60,488 nt of DNA from Nemertoderma westbladi. Its lineage: Eukaryota > Animalia > Xenacoelomorpha. Numbering within the stretch: position 1 is the first letter of the stretch; each line of letters opens with the position of its first letter. The stretch is taken from NCBI GenBank assembly GCA_032718475.1, contig JAUCBJ010006657.1, forward strand, positions 1-60,488, given 5' to 3'. The position numbers and the translations under genes are program-made. The notes under the pieces are model-generated. The model searched no databases, was not told where the DNA came from, and saw only the letters and a list, made by a program, of their open reading frames with translations. This document shows positions 12,801 through 56,928 of the stretch, one piece after another.

Positions 12801-12804
12801 CAAC

Positions 12805-14886: not shown

Positions 14887-15024
14887 GGGTGCTGGACACC
14901 TCGCCGCACTGCCACTTCGCCGCAAGTCATCTCGCCGCAGATAATGTGCGGCGAGGTGTCTTGCGGCGAGGTGTCTCACTGTGAATGACATTTCGCCGCA
15001 AATTATCGGACACCTCGCCGCACT

Positions 15025-21800: not shown

Positions 21801-22094
21801 TATCACTCAAGCAAATGCATAAAACTTGCCTCTAGTTCGCAATGGTTTACGTGCTCATGATGAGAGCTTTCAATCGGTGTATAATTGGCTCCGATTGAGG
21901 CTCGTGTGTCGAAACGTAGAGCTTGGAAGGACTTACTTCCTCACTCACTCACATACAGACAAATACATATTTGTATATAATTATATATTCGATAATTTCT
22001 AGTTTAGTTGTATCAGTGCATGGCTGTAATTTAATAAAACGTTTTTTTTTTAATTTTTTTTTAGATTCCCAACCAAATGTGAAAACCTAAAGCA

Positions 22095-25000: not shown

Positions 25001-28000
25001 ATATTTTAAGGTTGAGTTGATGTCAAGGACTTTCTTTCAGAAAGTATTAGGAGTTGATATTTCTACAGGATGGTACTGGGGTAGATCTGAATGGGGTCCA
25101 TCACGAGCTGTGCAGCACTGGCATTTCTTGGTGCGTATTGCCCAGGTACTTGAGCCAATATTGTTGGCTCACCTGGTCCACAGAGCTCGCTGTATAAAAG
25201 AGTACTGGTCTGCTGGAAAGATGGTAGAGAACTATAGGGATGAGGCTATTAGAATTCTGCGTGTCGGCCAGCTTGCTGAAACATACCTGAGAAATTTGTT
25301 TGATAGCTTAATTACAACAGACTTCATTGATACTTCTGGGAACCCAGTTAATTTGGACGAGCTACTGCGCAATCATAATCTACTTCCTGAGGAACAACAG
25401 TACAGCCCTGAGCATCATCCACTGATGCGTGATCCTGTGAATCAACCAGACCTTTGTGAACCGAAATGGTTTGATCAAGCAGTTCAGGCTGCTCTCGCTC
25501 AAGTTCACAAGTGCATTCCTGAGAATTGTGGTGGGAATCCCCAGGGAATTGGCTGTCGTCATGGTGGGATAAAGCCTCTCAGAGATTCAACTAAAGTAGG
25601 TTTCACAAAGTCCTCATCTACCATGGACTACACAGAGTGTCGGGTGCTTACAAAACGGAGCCACAAGTCATTCACTCGTCTAAATAATATAAATCCAATC
25701 TTACAGCGGTATTGGCGTGCCAACACAGATACAACTGTAATTTGTTGTGCTTTTACAGTCATCAGATATGCAGTCAAATATGCTGCGAAGTCAACATCTA
25801 GATTGTCTTGTATTGACGAGGTTGTGAGTAAATTAATGGAGCTTACAGAGAGCCAACCAGATGTGTCAATTCACAGCATTGTTCGTCGGTTGGCTATAGC
25901 ACATGCTTTCAATCCTGTTGATATGAGTAGACGGCAGCTACTTTTTCATGCTCTCCAGTTGCCTGATGTTATCAAATGCATGCCACGCATAATTTCATTG
26001 AAGTGCAGCCAAAGTGCTCCTATTCTTGCTAATGTTTCAAGAGTTTCAACTGATTCTAGCATGTTACATGTTGAGGAATGCATAGATGATATTGATAATG
26101 ATACTGATGATTTTAGTGACAACAGTGATGTGGAAGATGATAGGTTACCATCACAGACCAATGTATGTGAGAGAAGAGAGAATGTTGAAGCCAATGAAGA
26201 CATTTATAATGTTAAGAGTTTATTTATAGTTCCACCAAAATCAGCATTAAATTCTTACATTCAACGAAACAATTACTCAAATTGGCCAACTGAAAAAGTT
26301 GGTTGCATCGAAAATATTAGTTACTTTGATTATTTGTTATCGGTAAATCTTGTGTATAGAAAGGCACAACTGGAGTATATTCATCAGTCAGTCTCTCATA
26401 GATATCCACGAGTGCCTCATATTGTTCCTCAAATGGTAACTGATAGACCAGAATCTATTGTATTAGATCAAGGCACAACTTGGGGTAACCTACATCGAGA
26501 AACAAGGCAAGCTCTACAGAATCTGCGCATGGAATGCTTATCATTCATTCCATTTACATCCACTGAATTATTTATTAGTAAGGATCTTGCAGAATCCATT
26601 AAATGTGGTGAAAGTGATGTAATATGTGCCTATAAACAATTTCAAGACATATGGGTTAATAATTTGAAAGAGAGAAGTCTTCCAACCATAAATCGTATAG
26701 CAATTATCAATAATCAGTTACAACCATACAATGATCCTTGTTTTAGATTCAGGATCTTCCAGAACACATATAAATCTGAAATTGATCACAATAGACATAT
26801 CTTGTCAATTCGATCAGAATTTAATTGTGTACCCTTGGATATTGATCATAGTAGTCAAATGGACTCTGCTTCAGACAGTTTATTCGACCCAACTCTTGTT
26901 GATTTGGATGTAGAGAAAGTTTCTATTAATTTACTTCTTGCTGATGAGATTAATGTTGAGTGTTTCATTCAACCAGATCGATTATTGTCATCTTTTGTTG
27001 AGGAGACAGACAACAAATGTATTGAGTCTGTTGTATATATTAACGTTAAAGAAGCAACCTATGATTTCATGCTTAAACGTTGGAAACTCTTACGGTTATC
27101 ATCAAAGACGTTTAAGGGTGGTCCTAAGAAACCCAGGTCTGATTTGAAACAGTTAAATACACAACAACAACTTGCAGTAGACATGATGACCTTGAATACA
27201 GTAAATGGCAAACCATCAGTTAAAACATTACTACTTACTGGATTGCCAGGATCTGGTAAATCGGAGGTAATTAAACAGATACATTACCATCTTGGTGTGG
27301 AAAAGGTTTTACTTCTTGGTACCAGTGGTGTTGCTGCTGCAAATTTAAACTGTGCAACATTTGAGGGTTTTTTTGGTATTTATCAAAATAAAACTCAGTG
27401 GGACCACCATAAATTGTCAGATCGACAAACGCTGATTAAAGAACTCATTGGTGGTGTTGAAGGGGTGATTCTTGATGAAATATCAATGGCTGGTGCCAAT
27501 ACGTTGGCTCTTCTAGACTCTTCATTACGTCATGCGACTGGAAATGAACAGCTATTTGGCAGTAGAAAAGTCATGCTTGTTGGTGATTTTGCACAATTGC
27601 CGCCAGTACATTCTAAGCCTATTTGGGATAGACCAACAAACTTAGCTTCAGACAGGCCAACAAATCATCATATTCAAACATCCAGAGCAGTGGCCCAGAT
27701 TGGTTTTCAGATTTATCGAAACAATTTTCGAAAGAATGTAATTTGCCTTGATAAAGTCTACCGATACGACGATGAATTGAGTACAATTATTAACAACATT
27801 CGTAATGGTACACAAACTGAAAGAGATTACGATGAGTTGTTTAAGTCCATGAATAAACTTGGCATGGTTCCCAACCGGGCTACTCTTGGTGAGAAAGTCA
27901 TAAGCTTAATGTATGATAACCATCCACGAATGTTAAGAAATGCCATTGAATGCATGGATGAAGTATCAGAGCTAAACATTGATATATATTTATCAATTGC

Positions 28001-30278
28001 CAAATATAATTGCGACAATTCAAACTTCAGTAAATTGGGTCCGAATGAATTCAATACCATGTTAGAACATGTTATCCCTTTATATATTGGCATGGAAATA
28101 ATGTTTGTTGATAATATCAGTGTGCAGAAACGTGTGGTTAATGGAGGTCGCGGTATTGTCAAACAAGTGGTATATAATGAAGATGATCTAGAGTTTTTGT
28201 TAGGTCGGAAAGAACACCCACAACCCAACCATATTGTAGTTGATGTGTATGACCTCGATACAGACAGTGAACCATTACCTGAATTTCCAGACAACCCCAC
28301 ATGGGTTAGAATATTCCCCATAAGATCATATTTAAAACAGGCACGAAAACGTCATCATAAGTTTGCTGAAAATGTAGCACGTTTTAACCTTCCTGTTGTC
28401 CCAGTTCATGCAATAACTGTGCATAAATCTCAGAGTAATCAATATCCAGGCTCTCCAGTATATATTAATGTAAAAGCGGATGAGATTGCTCAAGGAAATT
28501 TGGCCTTGGCAAACCAATTATTAACAACAGCCGCATCTCGAGCAGATAGTTGCAAGAACCTTTTTGTGGAGCCTTTTTCACTGGAGACGTTTTTGAAGCT
28601 TGGTACTTCAAAAATGGATGTTAAGAGGCGAACTGAGGAAAATGAGCTTCTTACAAACTCAAAATCATTTTTACATAAATATGTCAGTAACATATCAAAA
28701 AAAGCAGTATCTGTGTCAACAACCGTTCATTCAAATGTTGTGGGGGGTGTGGGCCTGCCAGAACCAAGACATCAACCCAATCAAGTGATAACACGATCAG
28801 TTGGCATTGACCCGGGAACAGAAAACATGGGCATTGCTATTTGGCACAAAGAACCCCGATCAGCACCACTCTTGATATTTTGTGCAAAGGTGACACTTTG
28901 TAGTGCTGTAGACCGATCAACCAACAGTTCAAAGCTAATTGATATTATACTGAAGTCTGAACCAAGATTATTGCCATTTCTAACAACCAGAAATCCACAT
29001 GATAGCCCATATATTCCATCTTGTTCCATCTTAGCTGTAGTAGTGGAACAATTTCCATCTTATGCATCACTACGTTGGATGACAAAGAGTATCGTCGATG
29101 GTCTTCGTATCTTTGTTAATAACTGCTCACCATTTCGTCTCGAAAATAACACTCTAAAGGTGCATCATAATTCTGGGTTTTTGCTACATGCATCGCGGGG
29201 ACCTCTAGCTTATTTACCGAAGCTAGTGAAGGGTCTTCATATTACGCTTTATTTAAGAAGACCAACTTATGCTGATCAATTCAGTGATATACAACAACAG
29301 GAAAGAGCTAGAACTGCAGATAGAATTAACAGAAAACAACAATCAGCAAAATTAGCCAGATCAGTTCTTTCTGGAGAGTCAATGAAATTTTCAAATGAAT
29401 TGCAAGTTTCAGAAAGTGTAATAGACGAATTTAAAGATCTGGTTTTATCGAAGGCAGATGATTTTGGTGATGCTATGTTACATGGATTGTATGAACTGTT
29501 GATTCTTCGAATTGAATCCATGCATGCATCCCACTTTGTAGAGATGCATAGACAACAAACGTTGTTTCAAATTGGCAGTATTCGTTTGGTTGTCATTTCA
29601 CCAGGTCCAAAGTGGACTTTGTTAACCATCATGAGATGGAATGCCGTAAATTCCACAGTTATAGAAAGACTTATTCTTAAACGAACTCCTTATGATAAAT
29701 TTAAAGTTCCACTTGAGAATGCCAAGTTGTTTAGTGACAATGTAACTGTAGATGAACGAGTTATCGCTTGGCAGAACGAATTATCAGAACAGCTGTTAAC
29801 TAGTATTCGGTCACTAACTAACTCTGAAAGGTTTGGTTTTACAGCAACCAAGTTCGTTTTGATTCTAATGCGAAATTTACATCCTCGCGCACCAATGCAA
29901 CGATTTCTAACCAAGGATATGAAGACTCTATTCTCGCCAGCTAGAAACATCGAGGATGTTTTCTTCAAGACATTCAACGGTGTGCCCAACATCTGGCACA
30001 TGATTGGATCTGGAGAATCACGTTTCCTTCATGAAGCATGGGAAATTGTTCCAGAATTAATTACCAGAGTACAAGGTTACATCACTATCCGAGAGAAAGT
30101 CGAGGCATGTTTAGAGCTCATCACAGATGACACAACTTTCAGTAACCTCGAATTCACTCAACAATCTAAAACTGATATCGACCAGTTTCGTGAATGGGCT
30201 ATCCAAAAACGTATGATGGAAACCATTATACTTGGGCTTCATGCGTTGAAGAAACAAAAACATTTGAAGCTCCGATAA
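22095..30278 (+). CDS. Helitron-like (Helitron2/Helentron-type) Rep-helicase transposase with C-terminal RuvC/A22-like resolvase
   Basis: Uninterrupted 2727 aa. Two N-terminal C2H2-like fingers; DUF6570-like segment (LPKCTASERCMIA…VRSDVVRMWAQHLLSNRSSY). Rep motifs PNLFITF, EWGPSRAVQHWHFL (HUH) and YAVKY. Pif1 motifs GLPGSGKS, LDEISM, GDFAQLPPV, AITVHKSQ and AASR. C-terminal GIDPG…VVEQ…RKQQS…KADDFGDA. Confidence 0.9.
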   Translation: MSDQFIDISSGHNDLDMPVQLPYKCSLCSKAFSSLRGLSLHKRRSMKCATLSNQTLMSNQSGEAADSIDERPLSLNCYVCNAVFTSVRGLNVHHQRSDICAKAQYNLTKIKKRTYSEFKQKEQAVDTEAGSRKRTCPQFRLVEQSKDTAARREKRVSSPVRLIEQSKNTAARREKRVSSPVRLIEQSKNTAARREKRVSSPVRLIEQSKNTAARREKRVSSPVRLIEQSKDTAARREKRVSSQVRLIEQSKDTAARREKRVSSQVRLVEQSKDTAARREKRVSSQVRLVEQSKDTAARQEKRHTSEVRLVEQSKNTAYRRERRTLSVRQDTSSVNEQNTNIPQSFTSAEEPEQSCSSQDNVPHQRSRSRKKPPVKIPVSSSDRVKYSSRCELYKELENEVKFLKNTLHNWGVPKCHKDIDNVLSGIDSKNDEEATIFKTVVYPPIKKASERMQLPLWSWDQRERKHTQYLIETEQLDVQKMRQQDTEYVTQVMDDCVFKYSSGWQLKQCSMCHEVTIRLGVELLSGDCLKCKLASARRSKAASKTSRQDVALQVTLSPNEFNKSIGKLPKCTASERCMIAKQQAFTSVKFDFIRRHRFACHSIVVSHNLKQTIENMIPHTEYADHVVVVAKDVSGEHIRRMKVRSDVVRMWAQHLLSNRSSYRKIISNDKLLDSLQSGIYNSHCERPLGIDQLTCESEIINDVQHDMYAQSDSAAHQMFRVGDNLNGYIQTGIREAVQKQLRGTRHDIEISGMWNEKVSSHNWKLQEQFPDLHADGQKSITDILFYEDDDGNTRRTHLDILKRALSHQLKYAVEQPDGSHRWPYAEDDVYSFVVYDQLHLVSAFDGIRFYLHNEGEIDNLSTDELLKAFKNGHPETVAPLLIAHLRRYPHSTERWKQIRYELNSLCMSAGFPNLFITFNNNLRTDYGVRRIVYLSEYGINKMFNPTWFVKRDTWNKLLDKHAALVEQYLYFKVELMSRTFFQKVLGVDISTGWYWGRSEWGPSRAVQHWHFLVRIAQVLEPILLAHLVHRARCIKEYWSAGKMVENYRDEAIRILRVGQLAETYLRNLFDSLITTDFIDTSGNPVNLDELLRNHNLLPEEQQYSPEHHPLMRDPVNQPDLCEPKWFDQAVQAALAQVHKCIPENCGGNPQGIGCRHGGIKPLRDSTKVGFTKSSSTMDYTECRVLTKRSHKSFTRLNNINPILQRYWRANTDTTVICCAFTVIRYAVKYAAKSTSRLSCIDEVVSKLMELTESQPDVSIHSIVRRLAIAHAFNPVDMSRRQLLFHALQLPDVIKCMPRIISLKCSQSAPILANVSRVSTDSSMLHVEECIDDIDNDTDDFSDNSDVEDDRLPSQTNVCERRENVEANEDIYNVKSLFIVPPKSALNSYIQRNNYSNWPTEKVGCIENISYFDYLLSVNLVYRKAQLEYIHQSVSHRYPRVPHIVPQMVTDRPESIVLDQGTTWGNLHRETRQALQNLRMECLSFIPFTSTELFISKDLAESIKCGESDVICAYKQFQDIWVNNLKERSLPTINRIAIINNQLQPYNDPCFRFRIFQNTYKSEIDHNRHILSIRSEFNCVPLDIDHSSQMDSASDSLFDPTLVDLDVEKVSINLLLADEINVECFIQPDRLLSSFVEETDNKCIESVVYINVKEATYDFMLKRWKLLRLSSKTFKGGPKKPRSDLKQLNTQQQLAVDMMTLNTVNGKPSVKTLLLTGLPGSGKSEVIKQIHYHLGVEKVLLLGTSGVAAANLNCATFEGFFGIYQNKTQWDHHKLSDRQTLIKELIGGVEGVILDEISMAGANTLALLDSSLRHATGNEQLFGSRKVMLVGDFAQLPPVHSKPIWDRPTNLASDRPTNHHIQTSRAVAQIGFQIYRNNFRKNVICLDKVYRYDDELSTIINNIRNGTQTERDYDELFKSMNKLGMVPNRATLGEKVISLMYDNHPRMLRNAIECMDEVSELNIDIYLSIAKYNCDNSNFSKLGPNEFNTMLEHVIPLYIGMEIMFVDNISVQKRVVNGGRGIVKQVVYNEDDLEFLLGRKEHPQPNHIVVDVYDLDTDSEPLPEFPDNPTWVRIFPIRSYLKQARKRHHKFAENVARFNLPVVPVHAITVHKSQSNQYPGSPVYINVKADEIAQGNLALANQLLTTAASRADSCKNLFVEPFSLETFLKLGTSKMDVKRRTEENELLTNSKSFLHKYVSNISKKAVSVSTTVHSNVVGGVGLPEPRHQPNQVITRSVGIDPGTENMGIAIWHKEPRSAPLLIFCAKVTLCSAVDRSTNSSKLIDIILKSEPRLLPFLTTRNPHDSPYIPSCSILAVVVEQFPSYASLRWMTKSIVDGLRIFVNNCSPFRLENNTLKVHHNSGFLLHASRGPLAYLPKLVKGLHITLYLRRPTYADQFSDIQQQERARTADRINRKQQSAKLARSVLSGESMKFSNELQVSESVIDEFKDLVLSKADDFGDAMLHGLYELLILRIESMHASHFVEMHRQQTLFQIGSIRLVVISPGPKWTLLTIMRWNAVNSTVIERLILKRTPYDKFKVPLENAKLFSDNVTVDERVIAWQNELSEQLLTSIRSLTNSERFGFTATKFVLILMRNLHPRAPMQRFLTKDMKTLFSPARNIEDVFFKTFNGVPNIWHMIGSGESRFLHEAWEIVPELITRVQGYITIREKVEACLELITDDTTFSNLEFTQQSKTDIDQFREWAIQKRMMETIILGLHALKKQKHLKLR
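22512..23062 (+). repeat. 63-bp coding minisatellite, ~9 copies (RLIEQSKDTAARREKRVSSPV)
   Basis: Near-identical in-frame 63-bp units in the RepHel N-terminus. Confidence 0.95.
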
Positions 30279-34445: not shown

Positions 34446-34978
34446 TTATGTGACTACACCGATGATATGCGGTTTCAAGATTACGTTTAATCGGGTATTA
34501 TAATCAATCATAAAAATGATCGATGTTATCCTCCCCCCCCCCCCCTAACACACTGACAACGTATTGTCAATGTGTTACTATACTGTAGCGGGCACAAATG
34601 ATAACTTCAAATATAAATTACATAAATTATATTTTATAATTAATTAATTATTGATACTAAATTAAATAAGTTATACATTAGGTATAAATTAATATTCTAA
34701 AAGACCACTGGGTAGGTCGACCTTCCTTTATCAGTTCCATTTGTTTGTTCCTACAATATTGTTGGATAGGGCCTCCTAAGTGGAACAATATTTATATTTC
34801 CGGTAGTAAAACTATAGAATTTTCTAGTAACAACTATTACAAAATAAAATGTTGTTTCTTAATAAAACGAATCCTAATATAATTTATTTAGTCTATTCTT
34901 CCTTGAGGGAAAGAAGAAGTTCAGGTAATTAATCAGATCGAGAGACTAGAGACTTTCCTTCCCTCGATAAACAACAGA

Positions 34979-37077
34979 TTACTGATTCTCCACGCTGTGC
35001 TGGTTGCGTTTATGGGTCGATAGATTCGATGTTTGGGAGAACGCTTTACCACAAGTATCACAGATGTAGGGTTTATCTCCTGTGTGGATACGTTGGTGGG
35101 TTTTTAGATCGGAACTCCTGGTGAATGATTTACTACAGACGTTACAACTGTAGGGTTTATCTCCTGTGTGGATACGTTGGTGGGTTGTTAGATAGGAACT
35201 TGTGGTGAATGATTTACTACAAACGTTACAAATGTAGGGTTTATCTCCAGTGTGGATACGTTGGTGGGTTGTAAGATGGGAACTGTTGGCGAATGATTTA
35301 CTACAGACGTTACAACTGTAGGGTTTATCTCCTGTGTGGATGCGTTGGTGGGTTGTAAGATGGGAACTGTTGGTGAATGATTTACTGCAGACGTTACAAC
35401 TGTAGGGTTTATCTCCTGTGTGAGTACGATTGTGTTGTATTAGAGAGCCGTTCTCTGAGAAAGCTTTGTTGCACATAATACATTGGAACGGTTTCTCACC
35501 AGAGTGAGTGCGTTGGTGGCGTGTTAGATGGGACTGTGTGCTGAAACCTTTACTACATGTAGAGCAGCTGAACGGTTTCTCCCCGGAATGAGTGCGTCGG
35601 TGGGTTGTTAGACTGGACTGTCGGCTGAAAGCTTTACTACATGTAGAGCAGCTGAACGGTTTCTCGCCTGAGTGAACCCGTTCGTGCTCCATTAGTTGGG
35701 ATTTATATCCAAACACTTTCCCACAAGAACTACATCCCAAACAATCAACAGGTTTATCTAAACTGGAACGTTCCTTAGGACCAGTAGGAACGTTGGAACC
35801 CGAACCTGTTGGAGTAGAACCGGGTTCCTTGTGTTTCCGTTTTAAATGGGAAACGAGAAAAGATTCCACGGTGTAGACGATGTCGCAATGTTCGCAAGGG
35901 AATTTATGTAAACTCTTATCGTGAACTAAATCTAATCTCTTCCGCTCAGCACATCCACCTCGACTACTTTGGTGTCTAAGAATTGCCTCCTGATTATCGG
36001 ACCGGTAACTTCCACACCCGGTACACAGAATCATCCCGTCTTCCATAACTTTCATCCCCAATATCTTATTCTTTGGTTGTTTGGTAATTAATCCCAATTC
36101 CTCCGCGTATTCCGTTCCGTACCAAACAAGGAGTTCCGTACCGGCTGCAACTGGTTTACAGACCCGATAATACATATCCTCTCTGAACTGGAAAGCACTA
36201 ACTGTTTGTTCCTCCTCCCATTTGGCGCAGTTTACGAAGCGCATCCAATTAGACTTGTACTCCCATCTCCCGCTGACAGTAAAGAATTTACCCACATCGT
36301 CCAACATCAACCAGCTGTAACCGTCAGACTTGCCGGGTTTAGGTTTACCAGGTTTCCTCTCTCCGCCATAAGGGCCAAATAATGTTCCCGGATTCAAGTC
36401 GACCTTGGTAAACACTCCTTTATTATGAATCTGAGATTTCTTTATCTCCAAACACGAGGGAATTGTTCTGCTGCCCCGGTTCCTTCCTCCACGAGTGGTT
36501 TCGGTATTCGGTACGAAGTTAAACTCCCCGTGTACCGGACACTGTAAGTCACTATATTCCTCGCTGCAATGGTCGCAGAATATAAAGTTATTGAATGATT
36601 TTATTGGACAGTTGCGGTTGGCGTAATCGACTTCCTTTCTGGGTCGTAAACCACATCGGGGTTCGAAAGGAGCCGTCGATTTAGGAGAGACGATGACATT
36701 TAAATCCGACTCAACTGTAGAAGAACCCGAAATCTCTTCAACTATTTCTTCTCCCTCGGCTACTGAGGCCGGACTTCCCCCACTAGAAGTCCTTCCCGCT
36801 CCCGAACCAACGCGTCCCAAACTGTTAGCGAGTTTATCGTTAACCGATTCCTCGGCACTCGGTACACATGGACCAACAGTATCCGAGTGTCTACCGGAAC
36901 TGACGTCATCCAACAGATCGATCGCTGTATCAGATCGATCCACATCGGGAATACATTCCAGCTGTCCTTTTATTTCCTCGATGGAATCAGTTGTAACGAT
37001 AAACGATGACGAATTAAAACCTCCTGTTTCCCTGATAATATCGGTCGGAGATAAAGTCACTGAGTTCCCTTCTGCGG
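34979..37077 (-). CDS. PRDM9: PRDM9-like histone methyltransferase, coding exon 2 (SSXRD, Zn knuckle, PR/SET, C2H2 array)
   Basis: SSXRD-like GLRPRKEVDY; knuckle FCDHC…CPVHG; SET with FGPYGG, SNWMRFVNCA, MYYR and ELLVWYGTEY; one post-SET finger plus 9 tandem C2H2 fingers with TGDKP/SGEKP linkers. Predicted acceptor TTTCAG at 37078. Confidence 0.88.
34995..35735 (-). repeat. 84-bp zinc-finger minisatellite
   Basis: Four nearly identical CNVCSKSFxxSSxLxTHQRIH units and two CSTCSKxFSxQSxLTxHxRTH units; variation is concentrated in the recognition helix. Confidence 0.9.
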
Positions 37078-37932
37078 CTGAAAGCGGCCATGTTTAATTA
37101 ATTACTAATTTTATAGAAGTTTTAATTGGTTAATAATATATCCACATATTAAATTCTTATTCATTGATATATTGATTGATTAAATGAATATTAGCATATC
37201 TCGAGATATGCACATTATTTTTGGGAACTTATTTATGATGCAAAATATACCAAATCTCTAGAAGTTTCAAACTTGTTATTATCATGCCGTGTTAATAAAA
37301 GTTAGTGTAATCGCCCACTCTGAGCAAGCAGGTAGTTTCATTTAGGCTATTAACCCTAGCTGGCCCGGGCTAATTTACTACCCGGTACGTAGGCTACAGT
37401 AATTGGCCCGTGGGGGTGGTGGGGAGGTCATTTTAGACAATTTTTAAATCTTTGTCTTAAAAATTCAAATTTTGAATGTATAAGAGTTTTCAAGATCGTT
37501 GATCACGATAATGCTAAAAATATTTTCTGGCGATTCAACCATCATTGTTAGTGTTATTTATAGCAAAATGCCTTTGGTTTGGCAATTCTGAAGCTATACA
37601 GGTGTTCAAGGTCGCTGATCACGATAGATCTCGTTAAAAATCATTCGAGGTAACGCAACAATCGTTTTGTTGAATTTCTCCAAATTAAATTCATATCGAG
37701 AAAAATCATTTTGAAATTACCAATTGAGGGAAAGGAACAGTTTATATAGATTGTACTTTCTAACAAAAATAATAAACGAATATCATTAATTAAATTAATA
37801 AGTAATTCAACAGGACTAAGAATGATCCAACTCTATAGCAAATGGAGCGGAAAAAAATGAATTAATTAAAAATCATTAATTAAAAATTAATAAAAATGAG
37901 TCTAGGTTACAGTGTCAGCATACTACAATATA

Positions 37933-39126
37933 GGGTAAACTGGGGTGAAGTGAGCTATTTTTTAATTTATTTTTTTAAATATAGAAATTTGTATTATTTC
38001 CATTCTCTAAAATCATTATAATGTCTACAAAATTGTACAAAATAACTTACGACAGTTTGAAATTTCGAAGCAATTAAATTTTTTACAAAATATGTAAAAA
38101 AAAAGTTGAAAATTCATGCATACAAACTTTTTGGTTATTTTTTTTAAAATACAAAATAATAAACAACGAATTAAGGTAGAGAGTTGTCATTACCGCAAAT
38201 AATGGTAAATACGTGATACTTGAGATATCCCGTGCAATTTTTGTCATTCTACAACTAATTATTTACTTAATTAATTAATTAATTTGGTTCACTTTACCCC
38301 TTAAATATATTGGCAATGGGGTAAAGTGAGCTATTGAAATTTTGGTGCTGTTTATGTTTTAGAAAATTTTATATTTCATTATTATCTCTTAATTTGTAAC
38401 AGAATGTTGTTTGGATGTCGGGGAGGCCCTAACTCTAGGTTTTAGCTGTCAGGTCAGGCCCGAGGTCGGTCTAATAAATAAAGGTCTTAGGCCTGCAGAT
38501 TAGTACCAGTAGTGCTACAATTTCCACTACTAGGCCTACTGTATTCAGGTTTCTTGTTTGTTTTTGGTTATTTAGATTTATAATAGGGCCTAATAATTTT
38601 GTAATGTTCTATAATTCATAATTCGTTGGCCTATAGCAGTATAGCCTACTGTATGTTTATCTATTTTTTACAAACATAAAAATGGTTCACTTTACCCCCA
38701 GAAAATTACTAAATGGGGTAAAATGGTTTTAGACCTCATTTTCGAGGGAAGCTCACTTTGCCTCATGAGTGGGGTAAAGTGAGCCATTCGAAATGTCAAA
38801 AAAAATAAATAATCTGCCTTTAATAGGCAAATTATCTCTTGATTTTTTCATAAGGCAATCACTGATTGGGGTTAAATGGTTTGGCAAATGATTTTAGAGC
38901 TAGCTCACTTTTCCCCATGAGTGGGGTAAATTGAGCTACTTGTGTGCTCTAAACAAAAGGTATAATTTGACTATTTAATAGGCAAATTATGTTATAATTT
39001 TTGTGAGATTGTTTAGAGCAATAATGTAGTGCACAAAGAAATACATTTGTATTTCCTCAATGAGAAAGTAACTATTTTTAAAACACGAAAAACTACAAAA
39101 GTAGCTCACTTCACCCCAGTTTACCC
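37933..39126. mobile_element. Non-autonomous DNA transposon with TA TSD (Tc1/pogo-like), inside the PRDM9 intron
   Basis: TA|GGGTAAACTGGGGTGAAGTGAGCTA … TAGCTCACTTCACCCCAGTTTACCC|TA; internal GGGGTAAAGTGAGC repeats. Confidence 0.88.
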
Positions 39127-39133
39127 TATTAAT

Positions 39134-40212
39134 TAGGGGTGTACCGGATTTCCGGCCGGTTTTTGAGAAAAAAATCCCTTTCCGGCTCAGGCTCCGGCCG
39201 GATTTCAATTTTTTCGCCGGATTTCAATTTCAACGAATTGTTGCCAAAATTTACAATTAATGTAAATTTTCAAAAAAAAACATCAAACTAAGTTTTATTT
39301 TAAATTAAAACAAATTTAAACATAAACAAATACAATGTAATACAAAACAATTATTTTCATAGTTTGTATCATATTCATTCATATTATGGATGATAAAGTC
39401 TGTAGCAGAGCTATTATTGTATGACTATCTACATGCTGAGCTGACCGACTACTTTTTACCAAGAATATTTGTATTTGGTTGGGCTCAGCCTCACTAACAC
39501 TTAATATATAATAAATAGTACATTGTATGGCCATATACTAATTAAGCTTACCACCGTGAATGACCAGTTTATATATTCGACAGGCAATTTAGAAACTAGT
39601 AAATACAATTTAAATCAGAGAGTATATACAAAAACTACACCTATTATTTCTTCGTTCTATTTTTCAATGTCCCTTTTTTATCAAATCAATTCATTATATC
39701 AAATCGGCTTAGGTTATGGTACAAAAATATTAGTTTCTCTCCACGATCCGGAAGTAGACGAGAGCGTTTCTCATCAAATACATTACCAGCCTCTACAAAT
39801 ATTCACTCGGAATAAATTGAAGACGCTGGTGATACTAAATATATGTACAAGTATTTGTAAATTAGGAAATAATTCCTTATTTGCAGCCAACCAACGCAAA
39901 ACGCACTTCTCGTCCCGTTTAGTAGGGATAATTGACATATACTTACTAATCTACTTCTGAATTATTGTTAAAGTCAAAGTAACCTTGCTGATCATGATCC
40001 AGCACGTTATCTACGTATCGACGCAGGACCTAACACCCAAAGGATCAAATGACGTGGTATCCTCCCTCCCTCCAGTTCTGTTCATGCATAAAGGTACCAT
40101 ATAGCTGATTCAAGGAAAAAATCCGGCTCTGGCCGGAATTCCGGCCGGATTTTTTCTACAAATCCGGCTCCGGCCTGGCCGGTTTGAAAGTAGTCAATCC
40201 GGCACATCCCTA
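39134..40212. mobile_element. hAT-type MITE inside the PRDM9 intron
   Basis: TIR TAGGGGTGTACCGGAT / ATCCGGCACATCCCTA with subterminal CCGG repeats. Confidence 0.8.
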
Positions 40213-40836
40213 ATATAAATGAATAAACATTTATAAATATAAACATTTGTTTGGTTAATGAATAATCAATGACATTGAATGAATAAAGTTCCCGTAAAAT
40301 ATTGGGAGAAACATCATATTTTGTGCGGGAAGTATCGCTTTTGGTTGAAAGTAAATTAAATTTGGGCAGAAATAACGGTTTGAGTAAATTAATTACTTTT
40401 TCGGATCGCCGAGATATTTAAATTGGGGGATGTAACCTGTTGGAGCTATTAAAGAACATTAACAAACACAACGGGAAATAATAGCAGCAAACTATATGGC
40501 AGAAATTGTGGAAGGGGGAGTTTACCAATTAATTATGCTAAATTAATTAATAAATGCTGAAGGTAATTAATTACCGATCCGGAAATATAATAGATAAATA
40601 ACTGTTTGAACTGTTACCGGTATGTATTGCTTTTTTACACAATATAGGCTATAGCGGGAAAAAATGTTTAAGAAGATTCCGTCCTACTGTGATTGGCCAT
40701 GACATTTCCCCAATAATTTTCCCTCAATAAATACGAGCGCGATTCTGTAACGAGTGAAATTTATGTTGAGATAAATAATATATCTCGGTGAAATATGTAA
40801 AAACAAAATTATTTAATTACTATGGCCGTTTTCAAC

Positions 40837-41401
40837 CACCGTGATTCTCTCCAGTGATAGACTCTGTTTCATTCACGTCTTTCATGTGAAAATCGAAACT
40901 TCCTTCTGCGCTCAGATAACTGCCACTTCCCTCGCTACGCTCGATGCTGTCGCAGTACCATTCATACGGACCTGGCGGAGAATCCGTCGCTTTCCTTCTG
41001 TAATAAGGAAGTACCAGATCCGAGTTGGTACAGGCCACGGATTCCTTGTCTGAATCATCCTCACAAACATCGACAATAATATCCTCAAATATGGAGTGAT
41101 CCATAGAGAGTGATCCATCTTCTTCTTCGTCTTCATCTAAAACATCCATTGGTTCGTCGTTGATACCAACTATCTTATCTTCAGGAATAACTTTCCTCCC
41201 AGACACTCTATTAGTCCTTTCCTTCATAAAATCTGGGGGTTCTATTGGCTTGGTTCTGAGTTCGTTAAAACCTAATGACGTCAGCATCTCGAATTGTTCC
41301 TTCAAGGCCAACGATCGACGCCTATCAAAGATGCTCATTAACTCCCATTCGTTGTCGGTGAAATATTGACGGATGGAATCGAACTCGGAATCCATTGACA
41401 T
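40837..41401 (-). CDS. PRDM9: PRDM9-like, coding exon 1 (ancestral KRAB domain + acidic linker)
   Basis: FDSIRQYFTDNEWELMSIFDRRR…LTSLGF…PPDFM matches the PRDM9/SSX KRAB pattern. A phase-1 GT donor at 40836 joins exon 2 in frame (predicted 887 aa). Confidence 0.8.
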
Positions 41402-41794
41402 CTCGAAGAGTAAATATATGATATAAAGTGATTTAAAAATACAATATACTATTACAATACAGTTGGAATTTTTGATATTCTAAAAGTAGAACATAAACTG
41501 CAAAACGAATAGAATATATTCAGTGATACAGTAGGTACTGTAGTAGCTTGCTAAATTAAGCTATTGTATACGGTGGCTGAAAGCGGCTGTAGGATAGGTG
41601 TCATACGGGCCTGGTCTGGACGGTGTCTGTCGGTCTGTAAGTAGGTCGACGGTTAACGCTATAAAAATAATCTACTGGAAAATGAAAAAATTAACGGAAA
41701 CAAACGCTCGCGATTGGCGGTTTCCAATGTGGGAATTTTGAAACTCACTATAGTTTTGTACGGTTGTTTAAGCGGTATACATAGTATATGCAGC

Positions 41795-41960
41795 ACCCTG
41801 GTTTAGTGTGACATTCCTGGTCTCCCAATCATTCCTAGCCCAAACCTGGCTTTCATCCTTATCTGGTGGATAAATGGGAACTTACTGTGGAAGATCACCT
41901 ATATTGGTGAACAGGCATTCCTTGGCTTAACGAGCCTAAAAGATTCTCCCATTCATTAAG
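41795..41960 (+). mobile_element. SINE remnant with Deu/Nin-like core
   Basis: CTTTCATCCTTATCTGGTGGATAAATGGG, similar to the core at ~2955-2990. Confidence 0.35.
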
Positions 41961-42174
41961 TGGTAGTATTCACTTGCAACATAAAGTTTATGTTTATTTT
42001 ACTGTGTATTACACTTTATTTTACTTTAATATCTGTACAATATATTTTCCGTAATTTTTCCTCTATTTTAAACAACAACCGAACAAATACAGAAATGTTG
42101 ATTGCATTTGTACCGTTATGTAGTCATTTGAATATAGGATCAGGTGACAAAGTCAGGTGGGATAACTACTACTA

Positions 42175-42517: not shown

Positions 42518-43430
42518 TGATAGAGGCTACGGTTGGTGTTAGCTTATTCAATCCCGCTAACACCCCATAAAGTTATAAGCCGATAAGCAATATTGGGAGC
42601 CACGAGATTGGGCAATTAACCAACTCGTGCCATCCCAATAAGAATGGGAAGGAGAAGCACACAATGAGGGTCAGGGGCCAAACCCCTAACCCAGAGAGAA
42701 TAGGTGGAGTGAACGGGAACACTCCAAAGGGCGCCAACAAGGGTATCAACCAATCAGAGGGGGGAAAGGCATCGATTAGGTAGAGTAACAAGGCCAACCG
42801 TGCAATATAGCCACTTGGCAGTAATCATACCAATTTCAGTTATCTCAGTGCAATACCGGTGCTAGATTAAGTTACATAGTTTAGCTAGGGAAGGACCGGG
42901 ACTTTAGTTACCGTATCCCGCCTTCCGTATACGACAATATTATCTCATATCTATATCTATATCTATATCTGCATATCATATTATATACGACAAACAGCAC
43001 AAACTCATTCAGTCCTTATACACGGCGGGGACGCGTGAACTAACAACGGATAAACCGGGATCCCTCTTGGATCCCGTCACAGTAACTAAACCAGCTGCCG
43101 CCCTAGATAAACTCAGTAACCACCAGCCACCAAATCTGCAGAAGAAAGATGAGTCAGTCGGGTGAGATATCACCGACGCGGACCCCGGACGAAGAGCTAA
43201 CGATCCGCGAGGCCGCAACCAGGTGATACAGGCCCACAACGCCGGACCCATCGGTAACGGGTCATCCGGCAGTTCAGGACGAGGGGGGCCTGGAACCCGA
43301 GGTCGAGCCGAGAGGAAGAGAGAGCAAGACGGAGGGAGACGGAGACGAGTCGACACAAGGCGGGGGTCGACGCACCGGTGTCGCCGGCCAGCCTCAGGCC
43401 GAGGGCGACGAACGGGCCACCGAAACGGCG

Positions 43431-46108
43431 ATGGTGGGGCCGACGGTGCGGCCCCGGACGCAGAGAGACGAAGGAGATATCGGTACCGATGTCGCCGGCC
43501 AGCCACAGGCCGAGGGCGACGGACGGCCCGCCGGAACGGCGACGGTGGGGCCGCCAGTACGACGTCGGACCCGGAGAGACGGAAGAGAGATCGGCGACGA
43601 GGACGTCGGGGTTTCTGATCGACTTCGACGGGCCTACAACACGACCCAGAGACTACTAAAGGACGCTAAGAAGGAAGGGGCGAAGATAGACGAGGTGAGA
43701 CTGAGGAAACGACTAGGTGAGTCGGATAGACACTTTAATTACCTAATGCGTTTTGGGCAGAGAGAACTAGCCGAGGAGAGAGCGAAAGGGATTGCCAGTG
43801 ACTATGGGAATGTGGGAGTATGGAACCTAGCGTAGCGTCAGTGTACATAGGGCCATACTTGGTCGATGCCCGGGGAGTAAAATTAGTGGGTTGGAGGGGA
43901 CCAGAAGGAGGCGAATCCGAGGTTAACCCCGAGGATTCGGCCTCATCGGTCGGAGGAAGTTCCGGGAAGCGGGGGAAAGTTAGTAGATCGGGAAGGCGGA
44001 GGGAGTCCGTCGTAACCGATAAGTCTGCTACATCCTCCGCGAAAGAAAGACTGGTGAGAGAGGCAGGTGCCGCGTACCGTCTCGAGCTGATAGAGCAAGG
44101 TCAGAGGGAAATGGATAAACGGCTAGAGGAGGGGAGAATGCGGCTAGAGAGGGAAGCGGCATTGATTAGAGAAACCGGAGAGAAGGCCGAAAGGGCTTTG
44201 AGAAGCCTTAGGGAGTATGATGAAATAGAGTTGAAGGAACAAGAGGAGCGTGTGGCGAGAGAGAAAAGTGAACGCGAGAAACATGAGGTGAGAGAGAAAA
44301 GTGAACGCAAGGAGCGTGAGGCGAAGTGGGAAAGTGAACGAAAGGAACGTGAGGCGGAACGCGAGAAACGTGAGGCGAGGGAGGAAAGTGAACGCAGAGA
44401 GCGTGAAGCGAGACGAAGGGAGAGTGCTAGGAGAGTAGCAGAGTTGGCTGGCCAGGACGCGCGGGAGTGTGAGAGGAGAATGGCAGAAGCTGAGCGAGAG
44501 CAAAAGGAATTAGAGAGACGCCAAAGTGAGCTTTCGGGACACAGGATTAGACGCGCGCATGAGTTGCAAATGGTGCGGGCGGGGGCGTCTGAGAGCGAGA
44601 CTGGCTCGAGTATTTTAGAGGAGCCAGGGGCCGTGGATACATTTATTAATACCCCACTTACAGGGACCGCACGACAGACCCAAAACTGGTGTGACCGTAC
44701 GGGCGGGGGGGGGGGGGTAATAATGATAATGGTACAGTAGACGTGGTTAATATTAATAGTACCGTATGGGATAATTCTAATCAAACCTTTATTGCAGGAA
44801 ATACTTTACCTAGTGGTAGTAATTTAAATTTAAATCAGAACAATCCTAATGTTAATGTAGAAAATAATTCTAATAATGTGGTTATACAAAGTAATCCAAA
44901 TAATTTAAATAATGATCCAAGCCCGAATTTACAAAATAATTCAGATAGTGTAGTCGCGCAAGATAATTCAAATGATTTTATTTCGAACGAACAAATTAAT
45001 TCCGTTTCCAATACGGGTGCTATTAATGTAAACACGTCGGGCGTGTATGGCCAGACAGATGGGGCCCTGGTAGGCCACGTAGTTAGTAGGCCGGAAGTAG
45101 CTGGGTTAGGTAGACCCGGTGAGGGCCTGGTAGGCCACGTAGTTGGTAGGCAGGAAGTGGCTGGGTTAGGTAAACCCGGCGAGGGCCTGGTAGGCCACGT
45201 AGTTGGTAGGCAGGGAGTGGCTGGGTTGGGTAGACCCGGCGAGGGCCTGGTAGGCCACGTAGTTGGTAGGCAGGGAGTGGCTGGGTTGGATGGACCCAGC
45301 GAGGGCCTGGTAGGCCACATAGACGGTAGGCAGGGAGCAGAGGGCCTGGTAGGCCACGCAATAGCAGAGAGAGAGGCGGGGGTGAATAGACCCGACCGCG
45401 GTAGGGTTGATGTGTCGACTAGAGAGGGATATAGTAGCGGGATGAGAGATAGCGAAGTTAGATGTGGCGAGTGGTGGGGGGGGGGGGGGGCTACGAGAGC
45501 CCCACAACAGCGAGTTAGCGGCGAAAGGGGGGGGGGGGCAGAGAGTGTCCCACAGCCGTCAGCGGATAATGCGAGGGCCGAAATAGGTAAACGCAACAAC
45601 CGGCGACGGAAAGTAATAGGGGGATTGCGAGTATCCCCAGCGGCGTGCGACCGAGCAGAGAGAGACAGGTTGACGTCGTGAGAGGGCGGACGAAGCGTCG
45701 AGCCCGATCAGAAGAGGGAAGGAGAACAGGGGTTTAACCGGGAGGTCGACGAGAGATCTCACGAGCGGGAATACTACACTGAAAGGAGAAGAAGAGAAGA
45801 CAGTAGTAGAGGTATCGCCGCGAACGATAGAAGAACGAGGACGGATAGCGAGCTGTCGGTAGTTGAGATGAGGACGGAGAGTCAGTGGGGTCGGACTCCG
45901 GGAGATTGCCGTCGCCCCGGAGAGATGCGACCCGGCGAGGCGCACTACGCGCCGATGGAGGGGTACGCGATGTACCGGTACGAAGACGAGAACATTAGAG
46001 GGGGGGGGTCGAAGAGAAACTTTCCGACGGAATACACCTATCGATCGAGAATACGGTAGCCGCGGGGAGGACTATTCGAGAAGAATAAACTTCGATCCCG
46101 AACAACAC
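43431..46108 (+). pseudogene. N-terminal gag region (coiled coil, Asn-rich and Gly-rich repeats), frameshifted
   Basis: Consecutive ORFs 43431-43835, 43820-44740, 44743-45681 and 45868-46059; several breaks lie near poly-G runs. Confidence 0.6.
45058..45360 (+). repeat. 60-bp coding tandem repeat, ~5 copies (EGLVGHVVGRQGVAGLGRPG)
   Basis: Repeated GGGCCTGGTAGGCCACGTAGTT units at 60-bp period. Confidence 0.92.
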
Positions 46109-49100
46109 ATGCAGACTGTAGGACATACTGTAGGCCTTACTGCACATACCATAGGCCATACTGAGAGAGGCAATGTAGGCGATAGGATAGCGTGGACAAC
46201 GGGATTAAACCCGGAAGTCGCGGAGTACATACCGGTGGGTAGGCCAGAAGCTGATAGGCCTATACCGGTACCAGTACAGCAGTATGACTACAGCATGCAG
46301 GGACATAACATATACCCAGGGGAGGGGGAAATTATTGCGGATAGGTGCATGGGCCCCAACATATTAACATCAACCCCAGTACCAAACATACCGGTGGGGG
46401 GGGGACAGGGTGACATTCCCCCATCACAATATCAACAATATACCCCGATAGGAGCAAGAACAACGAGACCCTTGGATGAGAATAGGTCGTGTGATACAGA
46501 CATATGGAGGGGGCCGCTACCCCCGATGACATACCCAAGTCAGAGAAAGTCAAGAAATAGGACAGACGGAATGCACCAGACAGGAGAAACTATACAGCAT
46601 CCATCGAACCCATTGGAAGCACAGGCGATGGGGATGGCCACGTTGATCGATGCGTTGAAAACGAGGATCGAGCTACCACCCGTGGAACCATTCAAATTCG
46701 ATGGGAGCAGGCCGGAAGAATATCTACAGTTTCGGCGCATGTATAGTAACGAAATACTAACAAAAAACTTGACGCAGGCGGAGTGCCTAAAGTATCTGCA
46801 AGTGTACACGGGAGGCCCAGCATACGATATCGTGAGGCAATATCAAGGAATAGAGGGCGGCTTCACGACAGCATGGCGGGCACTGGATAGGGAATACGGG
46901 CACCCGGCCAAGATCATCAGGCAGATGCTGAGAGGCATAACATCGGGTGGCCTACAGGATAATCCCGTTAGCATTAAGACGTTCGCTAACAAAGTCGAAA
47001 AGGCGCTAATCGTGCTGAAGACGCTAGACGCGCCGTACGAGCTCAATGCGTCCAACAACATCACCACGATAGCGCAGGCACTACCAAACTGGCTGCGCAA
47101 CAAGTGGAGGAAAATCGCCTTCTCCACTCGAGATAAGAAGGGTGCGGAACCGGGTTTAGAAGAAATGTCAAACTTCTTAAACTACGAGGCTGAACTAATA
47201 ACTGACCCAGTCTATAGTGAAGATAGCCTGGGAAAGGGACCGAAGACAGACTACCATAAACCGAAACCAGAGCACAACACATCAAACGCATTACCGAGAC
47301 TTAGGCAATCATTGCCATATGCAGCGACGCAGGGGACTGCAAGTCCACAGCTAGCCGAGGATAAGACAACACCATGGAACGGACAGGGAAACAATAACAA
47401 CACGAATAAACATAACCCCAGTACGTCCAGTAGGCTAAATCCAAACAATAAGAATAGTAGGGACTTTGGTACAAACGCAACTGCGATACGCAATGCACTG
47501 TATAAAGAGGGCTACGACCCAAAGAGCAAATGCCAGCTACACGCAAATGCGCTTCATCAAACCATGAACTGCAGGTACTGGCAGGCGCTACCTAGGCAAG
47601 ATCAGATAGATTATGCGTTCAGCAATAAAATCTGCTCGCGATGTGTAATGAGTGGACATAGAGCAAGGGAGTGCAAGGAGAAGCCAATAAAATTTGGTCA
47701 AAGGAGAGGCCAAACGATGGCGACGAGCACAGTAGGGGCGAAGAAGAGGGGAACGGTGTTACTTGGAGTAGTACCAGTGCGAGTGATCGGGGAAGGCAAT
47801 CGATCAGTAACAACACTAATGCTGGTTGATAGTGGAGCTGCCTTCACATTAGTCGAGGAATGGGTGGCCGAGGAGATAGGATTGAGAACGAGGCCAAGCA
47901 GGATGGCGGTAACAACCATCTCTAGCAAAGATGAGATCCTGGAGATGAGAACAGGACGGTGCGCAATTGCAGCAGTGGCACCAGGATGCGACTATGGGGC
48001 AACCATTGACCCCATCCAAGTGATAGAGTCAATTAATATTAATGCCAGGCGACCAACCAACATCGAGGTCGAGCAGTATAAATTCCTGGACGACATTGAC
48101 TTCTCAATCCCAGACGTGGACGTTAGGAAGGTGTCCATCATAGTAGGCATGGACTGCCCAACGGCCCACGAAAGAATGCAAACGGTCTTCGGCGAAGACA
48201 AGCAGAGTGACCCGGTGGCCATATTAACACCATTCGGGTGGACGCTGATTGGTCCAATTAAGAGCAAGATACCATTTAGGATGTCGGAGACATCAGGATG
48301 CATGTTCGCGGGAACAATGCAGGAAATGGGTGACGAGGGAGCAGAGGAGCAGCTTAAAAGACTGCTCAGACAGGATTTCGAGGGACTGAAAGAAACCGGG
48401 GTCGGGACCTCGGTGGAAGACAACCAGGCTTTACAAAGCGTGGAGGAATCGATGACATGCGATGAGGGGCGGTATACTATAGGAATGGTATGGAAACTAC
48501 CGAAGATACCGCTGCCCGACAATAGGGGGATGGTACTCACGAGACTCCGCAAGCTGAAACAAACACTAAAACGGAGCCCCGAGAAGAATGAGTACATCCA
48601 CAGAACGATTAAGAAGTACGTCGAGAAAGGATGGGCCGTGGAGTTACCGGTCGACGAGCCGAACACGGACAGGACATATTACCTGCCACTACACGTGGCT
48701 TTAGATCCAAAAAAAGGTAAACTACGGATGGTAGTCGACGCATCGGCAAAGACCGACGGAAAGTGCTTAAACGACTACCTGTTAGAAGGCCCAAACATAT
48801 ACAATTCGGGCATAGAGGTGTTACTTAGATTTAGAAATGGGAAACACGCCTTCACGTGTGACATAGAAGGCATGTTCAACCAAGTCCGTGTAACGGAAGA
48901 AGATAGCGACAGTCAACGCTTCTTATGGTATAATGGCGAGGAAGAACCGTCGATAATACCGGCATATAAGATGGTAGTACAAAACATGGGGGCCAAGTCG
49001 TCTTCATTTACGACGACTATGGCAGTGAGAGACACAGTGAAGGGGAAGGAAGATAGATACAGCAGTAGGGCCGTCGATATGATTCGACGCGGCTTCTACG

Positions 49101-51723: not shown

Positions 51724-51871
51724 TAGAGTTAGAGAAATGTTTAGTCGTCCAAGTTTTGGACTGAGGGGGTGGGATTGAGGGCGAGACGCCCTTCCCACAC
51801 AAAAAAATAAAATAAATAAAAAAAAAATAATAGTACATGGTAGGTACGCAGTTAGTAGGCAGAAGTTAGTT

Positions 51872-52480
51872 AAGAGGTACGTAGTACCTAGTTAGTTAGT
51901 TAGTTAGAGGGTACGTAGTACCGCTAGTTAGTTAGAGAGTTAGAGGGTACGTAGTACCGCTAGTTAGTTAGAGAGTTAGAGGGTACGTAGTACCGCTAGT
52001 TAGTTAGAGAGTTAGAGGGTACGTAGTACCGCTAGTTAGTTAGAGAGTTAGAGGGTACGTAGTACCGCTAGTTAGTTAGAGAGTTAGAGGGTACGTAGTA
52101 CCGCTAGTTAGTTAGAGAGTTAGAGGGTACGTAGTACCGCTAGTTAGTTAGAGAGTTAGAGGGTACGTAAGTACCGATAGTTAGTTAGAGAGTTAGAGGG
52201 TACGTAGTACCGATAGTTAGTTAGAGAGTTAGAGAGTACGTAAGTACCGCTAGTTAGTTAGAGAGTTAGAGGGTAAGTAGTACCGATAGTTAGTTAGAGA
52301 GTTAGAGGGTACGTAAGTACCGTTAGTTAGTTAGAGAGTTAGAGGGTACGTAGTACCGCTAGTTAGTTAGAGAGTTAGAGGGTACGTAAGTACCGTTAGT
52401 TAGTTAGAGAGTTAGAGGGTACGTAAGTGCCGTTAGTTAGTTAGAATTAGAGTTAGAGGGTACGTAGTACCGTTAGTTAG
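51872..52480 (+). repeat. ~36-bp tandem repeat (~16 copies) between pol and the extra ORF
   Basis: Unit GAGGGTACGTAGTACCGCTAGTTAGTTAGAGAGTTA. Confidence 0.95.
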
Positions 52481-52970
52481 AAGAGAGAGAGTAAGAGGTA
52501 AAAGGGGATATAGATATAGATATTAGTTAGCAGTTAGTAGAGAGAGGGGGGCATATGAGTGCAGCTGGGTAAATCGTGTGGCCACACGACGCATACTGCT
52601 GTACTGCATAGGCCCACAGAGTAGGCCAGAATGTGGATTAGAGAATAGAATAATCCATAGGCAATAGTAAGTAGTAGGACAATAGAATCAAAGTTAAAAT
52701 AGATAAATAAATAGAATAAGGGCTGAAAGTTACAAAATAATGGCAACACTAGGAAAGTTATTCTAGAACATAACAAAAGTAACGGACAGAAATTGTAAAT
52801 TACGCTCATTTACTAGCTTCAAAATTAATTAGTAATAATTTAGGTTAAAAGGCGCAGTTAAGTAGGAAATAGGTCATTATCGAACCGTACAGAACATCCT
52901 AGATACATCACTCATCTGTATTGCGCCTTGGTAAGGCACCACCTTGCAGGTGAGCGAGTGAACGTTCGGA

Positions 52971-56922: not shown

Positions 56923-56928
56923 CCTATC

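Follow-up and report, generated by a model that had tools for sequence, protein, structure and literature searches.

A divergent PRDM9-family gene with an unusual predicted exon structure in Nemertoderma westbladi

Introduction

Complete PRDM9 genes are already known in invertebrates. A full-length PRDM9 has been described in 28 of 28 cnidarians examined (one of them doubtful), ten of which carry multiple copies (bioRxiv 10.64898/2026.09.07.749791), and in two termites, in which no connection to the predicted motifs was found (PMC12047536). Concerted evolution of the zinc fingers was reported for an anemone, a limpet, and a polychaete in 2009 (PMC2779102). Cnidarian genes distribute KRAB over two exons, SSXRD over one, SET over two, and the fingers over one (bioRxiv 10.64898/2026.09.07.749791), and vertebrate genes spread KRAB over two exons and SET over three, with SSXRD and fingers on exons of their own (PMC11703093, PMC8835667). 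The full-length trout paralogue alpha2.2, with a contact-site diversity of 0.367, has been read as having lost its hotspot role (PMC11703093).

Here we describe a PRDM9-family gene in Nemertoderma westbladi, on the minus strand of contig JAUCBJ010006657.1 (60,488 nt, analyzed at full length and called the window; all coordinates are positions in it). A first-pass annotation had described a full PRDM9 architecture with the hallmarks of a hotspot specifier. Most of the architecture stands, namely, KRAB, Zn knuckle, PR/SET, and finger array, but of SSXRD only the basic half is recognizable; the hallmarks are weakly supported, with PRDM9 identity and the catalytic site on one side and a low contact-site diversity (0.236) and a degenerate SSXRD on the other. 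The gene thus fails two tested marks of hotspot-specifying PRDM9, an intact SSXRD and a high share of diversity at DNA-contacting positions, and its exon structure is unusual relative to published PRDM9 genes. The reading that we favor, at about even confidence, is a divergent two-exon PRDM9-family paralogue in a recent birth-and-death expansion, the product of which would bind DNA, methylate histone H3, and act as a gene regulator rather than place hotspots.

Compared with vertebrate full-length PRDM9 (mouse and human, structures 4C1Q, 4IJD, and 6NM4, and salmonid alpha1), the locus shares the domain order, knuckle, PR/SET fold, tyrosine motifs, post-SET finger, and a terminal tandem array varying at positions -1 and +3. 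In contrast to the approximately 10 coding exons there (PMC11703093), two are predicted here; the acidic half of SSXRD is lost, the array is partly homogenized, and contact-site diversity is 0.236 versus 0.33 to 1.0. Invertebrate full-length genes (cnidarians and termites, and mollusc, tick, and sponge proteins) likewise have the KRAB-SSXRD-SET-finger order, the tyrosines, and lineage-specific duplications, whereas the cnidarian genes have kept two KRAB and two SET exons, with full-length copies at a diversity of at least 0.29 (bioRxiv 10.64898/2026.09.07.749791).

Results

PR/SET domain and family placement. On its sequence and modeled fold, the gene is a member of the PRDM9 (Prdm7/9) family: its PR/SET domain is nearest to PRDM9, and an N-terminal ancestral KRAB (aKRAB), a knuckle, a post-SET finger, and a terminal C2H2 array are all recognizable. 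The PR/SET domain (36092 to 36442, minus strand, as are all coding features below) matches Pfam PRDM2_PR (E value, 5e-32). The Zn knuckle (C-x2-C...C-x2-H, 36530 to 36577) aligns with PRDM9 chains, its four residues being conserved in at least 90% of 71 alignment rows, and an isolated post-SET C2H2 finger lies at 35831 to 35902. The catalytic tyrosine motifs of PRDM9 have their counterparts in FGPY, YYR, and VWY (tyrosine codons 36368 to 36370, 36167 to 36169, and 36119 to 36121), all three intact; knuckle, domain, and tyrosines are thus borne out as first annotated. We take these motifs to hold Y276, Y341, and Y357, respectively, the labels given to the PRDM9 catalytic tyrosines elsewhere (bioRxiv 10.64898/2026.09.07.749791). 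Invariant and nearly invariant alignment columns are mostly retained, including the knuckle residues and tyrosines, and the alignment supports a catalytic site that looks intact.

Against solved PRDM chains (PDB sequences), the knuckle and SET region scored 120 bits with PRDM9, 100 bits with PRDM11, and at most 57.5 bits with other PRDMs. The SET model (mean predicted local distance difference test score, 81.9) found its best fold match in 4C1Q (E value, 3e-20; root mean square deviation, 2.1 over 172 columns), and the fold search ranked the families in the same order as the sequences did, PRDM9 first, then PRDM11, then the others. Identity to PRDM9 SET-domain chains was 36 to 38%. Of 337 candidates from a search of 5.8 billion clusters, 83 were hits; the named ones were mostly PRDM9-like, and PRDM9-like hits span sponges, cnidarians, molluscs, ticks, termites, lampreys, and sharks. 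The full HMMER search returned 1,944 hits, the best 150 of the 1,944 at 32 to 45% identity, and no database protein among those compared was more than 46% identical over the knuckle and SET region. Four proteins (P0084, P0001, P0085, and P0086) were rejected as closest relatives because their top scores stem from several matched stretches per protein.

A quick, unrooted tree was built from 214 rows, with 9 of the 222 fetched proteins omitted for short SET coverage; a search for other PRDM families to serve as an outgroup yielded none, which leaves the tree without a root. The query forms a long branch (0.95) with neither a firm placement nor close vertebrate relatives, and its neighbors are long branches as well. 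Because of these neighbors and the quick run, we draw no lineage from the tree; the same applies to a join of the query with set-17-like rows, which lies among long branches and is unreliable. Two PRDM11 rows are placed within vertebrate sequences, apart from the query. This position, together with the bit score ranking, speaks against PRDM11 membership, and no grouping of the SET domain with another PRDM family was seen in this unrooted tree lacking a true outgroup.

Prdm7/9 has been counted among the old metazoan subfamilies, with a loss inferred in pancrustaceans (Vervoort et al., PMC4760075). Despite this inferred loss, a butterfly and several beetles have PRDM9-like knuckle and SET proteins (P0090, P0122, P0129, P0174, P0202, and P0220). 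Another invertebrate expansion was seen in Dreissena polymorpha, with about 20 PRDM9-like paralogue clusters in one clade, mostly of low finger diversity. Literature searches on PRDM9 expansions or transposon silencing in molluscs and on PRDM9 or ZCWPW1 in protostomes added nothing.

Ancestral KRAB and a remnant of SSXRD. The predicted N terminus carries an aKRAB (41207 to 41383) with a six-residue insertion before its PPDFMK motif. It was the sole significant match (39 bits; E value, 2e-11) of a profile built from 22 homologue N termini and run against 1,004 six-frame segments of the window, which bears out the KRAB of the first-pass annotation, and its score lies within the span of 13 to 106 bits of 68 nonseed homologues. 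Pfam KRAB had no match in this gene. The best Atlas feature match, a cluster bearing KRAB (score, 0.86), is a lead only. Judged by its profile score, the N-terminal KRAB is genuine but divergent.

At the homologous position ahead of the knuckle lies the remnant of SSXRD (36623 to 36658), identified by comparison with homologues, in which the basic half, RCGLRPRKEVDY, is kept. The acidic half has no D or E in the 14 residues ahead of the knuckle, where 113 of 170 homologues have five or six and 162 of 170 have at least two. Two homologue-built SSXRD profiles were not significant (the first too noisy, the cleaner one at an E value of 1.4) and Pfam gave no match, although such profile tests have low power for so short a domain. 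In SSX itself, nucleosome binding resides in the basic half and a preference for ubiquitylated H2A in the acidic half; PRDM9 peptides were unbound in the same assay (PMC7714695). The intact SSXRD that marks full-length, hotspot-specifying PRDM9 is thus not present in this gene.

A predicted two-exon gene. Two minus-strand open frames carry the gene, one at 41401 to 40832 (189 codons) and one at 37093 to 34979 (704 codons). Joining a phase-1 donor at 40839 to a phase-1 acceptor before 37077 gives 562 plus 2,099 nt and a predicted product of 886 residues. Predicted coding exon 1 (40840 to 41401) holds the start codon, the aKRAB, and an acidic linker, and predicted coding exon 2 (34979 to 37077) is a single open frame that runs from a linker and the SSXRD remnant through knuckle, PR/SET, and post-SET finger to the finger array. 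Between them lies the single predicted coding-region intron (37078 to 40839; 3,762 nt, GT...AG, phase 1, GC content of 0.32). The GC content drops from 0.47 to 0.17 immediately beyond 40820, is 0.18 upstream of the ATG, and rises again at about 37078; these steps coincide with the predicted splice sites, the phases of which match. The join is a prediction because further phase-compatible donors, among which 40839 was chosen, occur 5' of it and the data are DNA only; the two-exon gene would be spliced in this way. A candidate polyadenylation signal was recognized by its motif at 34883 to 34888.

With KRAB in a single exon and everything from SSXRD through the last finger in a single 2.1-kb open frame, at least four of the usual introns are missing. 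A literature search for an intronless or retroposed invertebrate PRDM9 turned up no relevant paper.

Probable gene copies in four DNA runs. The stretch is present in contigs from four DNA runs (X1 to X4) of one organism, from three studies. Contigs diverged by 9 to 13% span SSXRD, knuckle, SET, and post-SET linker without large gaps in all four runs, so the diverged versions share the intron-free layout of this region; the X4 contigs scarcely cover the SET stretch, a hole that proves nothing. Contig joints revealed versions without the start-codon region (41386 to 41485) and versions with a 71-nt gap in exon 1 (40853 to 40925), and X1 shows a skip of 168 nt, or two fingers. Relative to the 3' flank, summed contig depth in X1 to X3 was 3- to 8-fold for the KRAB exon and up to 7- to 30-fold for the fingers. 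Several gene copies are likely, and only likely because summed depth is not a copy number and the most diverged contigs are shallow.

Forty of 472 substitution rows were listed, 14 of them coding. Five of these fall in fingers 1 to 8 and all five change a residue, three at contact positions (+3, +3, and +6 of fingers 3 and 4); one of the five may reflect misplaced alignment between neighboring fingers, and alleles, paralogues, and misaligned fingers are inseparable in these data. The array is thus not invariant across the runs. Residues are also altered by several of the listed differences in which all contigs jointly depart from the window.

Intron ends and two alternative origins. The predicted intron sits in an unconserved linker, and its GT and AG lie in the arms of an inverted repeat, one at the donor end (40805 to 40843, minus strand) and one at the acceptor end (37070 to 37112, plus strand). 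The alignment score of the two arms was reached by 0 of 5,000 shuffles and 5 of 20,000 random pairs from the window. A third copy of the end motif (41569 to 41591, plus strand; 17 of 22 positions identical to the donor arm; 0 of 5,000 shuffles) lies about 170 nt upstream of the ATG and faces away from the gene. Two further elements are nested in the intron, an insertion resembling a miniature inverted-repeat transposable element (37930 to 39129; 42-nt inverted ends, 88%) and a second element with short inverted ends read in the sequence (39134 to 40212); a joint from 37766 to 40252 in X1 and X3 bypasses both.

Inverted repeats that bear the splice sites fit an old transposon insertion that became an intron, as in Introners, the terminal inverted repeats of which likewise contain both splice sites (bioRxiv 10.1101/2022.06.06.494994). 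In contrast to Introners, there is one 3.8-kb case here, without a shown family of similar introns, the search for the end motif having covered the window only, and no target-site duplication was seen at the intron ends. The ends may resemble those of Transib elements. Transib identity was not confirmed, including in bioRxiv 10.64898/2026.08.26.747230, and a text search of the literature for the end motif came back empty.

Alternatively, a transposon-like insertion may have split the gene, leaving a decaying duplicate under relaxed selection with an inefficiently joined KRAB exon. A donor that matches the consensus poorly and lies inside an inverted repeat would suit such decay, as would the variant copies in which the start region is absent or exon 1 is incomplete, the long SET branch, and the residue-changing differences common to all contigs. 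We nevertheless consider it rather improbable, given open frames of 189 and 704 codons, GC steps at splice sites with matching phases, and conserved columns that are mostly kept, knuckle residues and tyrosines included.

Still more improbable is that the gene is the cargo of a mobile element (a Pack-TIR, with terminal inverted repeats, or a Transib-like element), which would account for the absent introns, the copies, and the end motifs that surround exon 1. Three end-like motifs starting with CAC or TAC do flank exon 1, the neighborhood consists of transposons, and contigs branch at 41586, within the third motif copy, where those of X1 to X3 end and the X4 contig has additional letters. However, the motifs are oriented outward from exon 1 rather than enclosing the gene, for which neither a partner end nor a target-site duplication could be found. 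Depth at the intron ends resembles that of the exons rather than that of high-copy repeats, and raised depth extends upstream as far as 42192 or beyond, a pattern expected of a segmental duplication; any resemblance to Transib is presumptive, and the motif gave an empty literature search.

Finger array and contact-site diversity. The tandem array (34997 to 35740) comprises nine C2H2 fingers, eight canonical and a last one with H-x4-H. Its terminal fingers had been described as near-identical at the DNA level except at contact positions. Near-identity holds for fingers 5 to 8 (35069 to 35404; 88 to 96%), but fingers 1 to 4 and 9 are 49 to 68% identical to the remainder, with the exception of pair 2/3 at 87%. 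The pentapeptides quoted for that description (TNSSH, ANSSH, TTSSY, and TRSSD) begin at position -2. Among the 11 variable sites of fingers 5 to 8, only 3 lie in contact codons (-1 and +3), another 3 are noncontact residue changes, and 5 are silent; positions +2 and +6 are invariant. When individual changes are counted instead, contact codons account for 6 of 14 (binomial P, 0.009), and the enrichment is therefore real, although differences are not confined to the contacts.

As defined by Baker et al. in 2017 (PMC5519329), contact-site diversity is the share of array diversity found at positions -1, +2, +3, and +6. It was 0.236 for the eight canonical fingers and 0.21 to 0.25 under other countings of all or most fingers. 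This value lies under every published full-length value, which range from 0.33 to 1.0 in vertebrates and from 0.29 to 1.0 in cnidarians, with truncated copies starting at 0.16 (bioRxiv 10.64898/2026.09.07.749791). Among 101 fetched proteins with at least four tandem fingers, a score as low or lower was found in 1 of 43 with KRAB and 9 of 58 without a KRAB hit, the latter class including two proteins that were fetched later and unscanned for KRAB (P0225 and P0257). The high contact-site share that marks hotspot-specifying PRDM9 is thus not a property of the whole array, and most fingers are not uniform in the manner of hotspot-placing PRDM9s.

These data bear directly on whether the gene is a working hotspot specifier, or one of several, in which fingers 5 to 8 turn over rapidly, the SET domain writes trimethylation at lysines 4 and 36 of histone H3, and KRAB recruits the break machinery. 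We regard this as doubtful, though worth serious weight. KRAB, knuckle, SET, the three tyrosines, and the post-SET finger are all in order; fingers 5 to 8 are nearly alike and enriched for changes in contact codons; cross-run differences fall at +3, +3, and +6 of fingers 3 and 4, along with the two-finger skip in X1; and several full-length paralogues per genome are known from cnidarians (bioRxiv 10.64898/2026.09.07.749791). Set against this, the diversity of 0.236 falls short of the ranges published for full-length genes, homogenization is limited to four of nine fingers, in which +2 and +6 do not vary, SSXRD fails the profile tests, and termites with both full-length genes and hotspots show no link of the latter to the predicted motif (PMC12047536).

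The surrounding window. The open frames read in the remaining window (four of them scanned against Pfam) are transposon sequence, and no other host gene was recognized among them; the CpG ratio of the window is 0.89. An intact Helitron-like frame of 2,731 codons (22083 to 30278, plus strand) encodes N-terminal fingers, 63-nt tandem repeats, DUF6570, Helitron_like_N, and PIF1; its C-terminal 550 residues had no Pfam or PDB match and contain a GIDPG motif that may be akin to RuvC-type resolvases. A Bel/Pao-type long terminal repeat retrotransposon (approximately 43000 to 55500, plus strand) has a stop at 49706 to 49708 and a frame break near 50800 to 50923, with a 36/73-nt tandem array at 51868 to 52487 and further unexplained frames at 52962 to 55483. 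Broken reverse-transcriptase frames at 5310 to 7064, 9191 to 10151, and 10539 to 13016, read by eye, resemble fragments of long interspersed elements, and long palindromic or foldback elements occur at 14057 to 14887, 15027 to 16042, 20063 to 20320, and 56124 to 56923. A unit of about 2.3 kb is in tandem at the right end (56924 to 60488) and partly repeated at the left end (1552 to 3145) at 92 to 96% identity; a 55.7-kb direct repeat near the window ends was rejected as a duplication unit because it covers about 1.6 kb only and is a dispersed repeat. Just upstream of the PRDM9-family gene, a short repeat of very high depth in X1 to X4 (about 41776 to 42042) is possibly a short interspersed element.

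Discussion

A divergent paralogue in a birth-and-death expansion could have arisen as follows. Introns would have been lost in an ancestor, via retroposition or lineage-wide intron loss, and an element with inverted ends would then have entered the linker and been spliced out as the sole intron. The locus would have been duplicated along with its flanks, its copies now diverging and some of them broken, and fingers 5 to 8 may have been made alike by recent duplication or conversion. The product would bind DNA via its array and methylate histone H3 nearby via SET; methylation at lysine 4 is suggested by PRDM9-family membership, and a regulatory role by likeness to nematode set-17 and to PRDM9 paralogues without rapid turnover of their fingers, such as salmonid alpha2.2. 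A hotspot role is disfavored because of the low whole-array diversity and the missing acidic half of SSXRD.

Several observations weigh against this reading. Exon depth in X4 is about that of the flank and the KRAB exon equals single-copy DNA, so no extra copies are evident in that run, and summed contig depth is in any case no copy number. The contigs diverged by about 12% are shallow in X1 to X3 (7 to 142 versus 134 to 550 in the flank) and may represent rare haplotypes or a second organism in the sampled material. The value of 0.236 was ranked among homologues, the proper reference being the finger genes of the species itself. Fingers 5 to 8 taken alone reach 0.53, a middling value that is equaled or bettered by a four-finger window in 46 of 101 homologues. 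The listed finger differences across runs fit diversifying selection and are the strongest sign that binding is still under selection, among alleles or paralogues. Finally, a weak SSXRD is no proof of a lost hotspot role because some fish PRDM9s match SSXRD weakly as well (Baker et al., PMC5519329).

The favored reading has parallels among paralogues acting off hotspots (salmonid alpha2.2, teleost beta, and nematode set-17, the last as cited in PMC8885841), which likewise have low array diversity and among which alpha2.2 retains the tyrosines (PMC11703093). Most of these have lost KRAB, whereas a divergent KRAB is kept here. The single-exon aKRAB zinc finger genes of the coelacanth are also similar in having a PRDM9-type KRAB, few introns, and a history of multiplication, to more than 200 paralogues (PMC8835667); they lack SSXRD and SET, in contrast to the SET kept at this locus, the copy number of which may be small. 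A bolder version strikes us as unlikely on present evidence. In it, PRDM9 lost its introns by retroposition, later acquired a single new one by domestication of a DNA transposon, and founded an expanding family of KRAB-finger genes that carry SET and diverge from copy to copy at their contacts.

In sum, the value of this gene lies in its exon structure, and it is a weak candidate for hotspot control; four domains and three tyrosines are insufficient to call hotspot function. Should it prove to be a retrocopy that has multiplied, it would illustrate how PRDM9 can give rise to expanded finger families that still carry the enzyme. If a retroposed PRDM9 did seed such a family, the locus would offer an invertebrate snapshot of PRDM9 becoming a KRAB-finger-like family in which the methyltransferase is retained.

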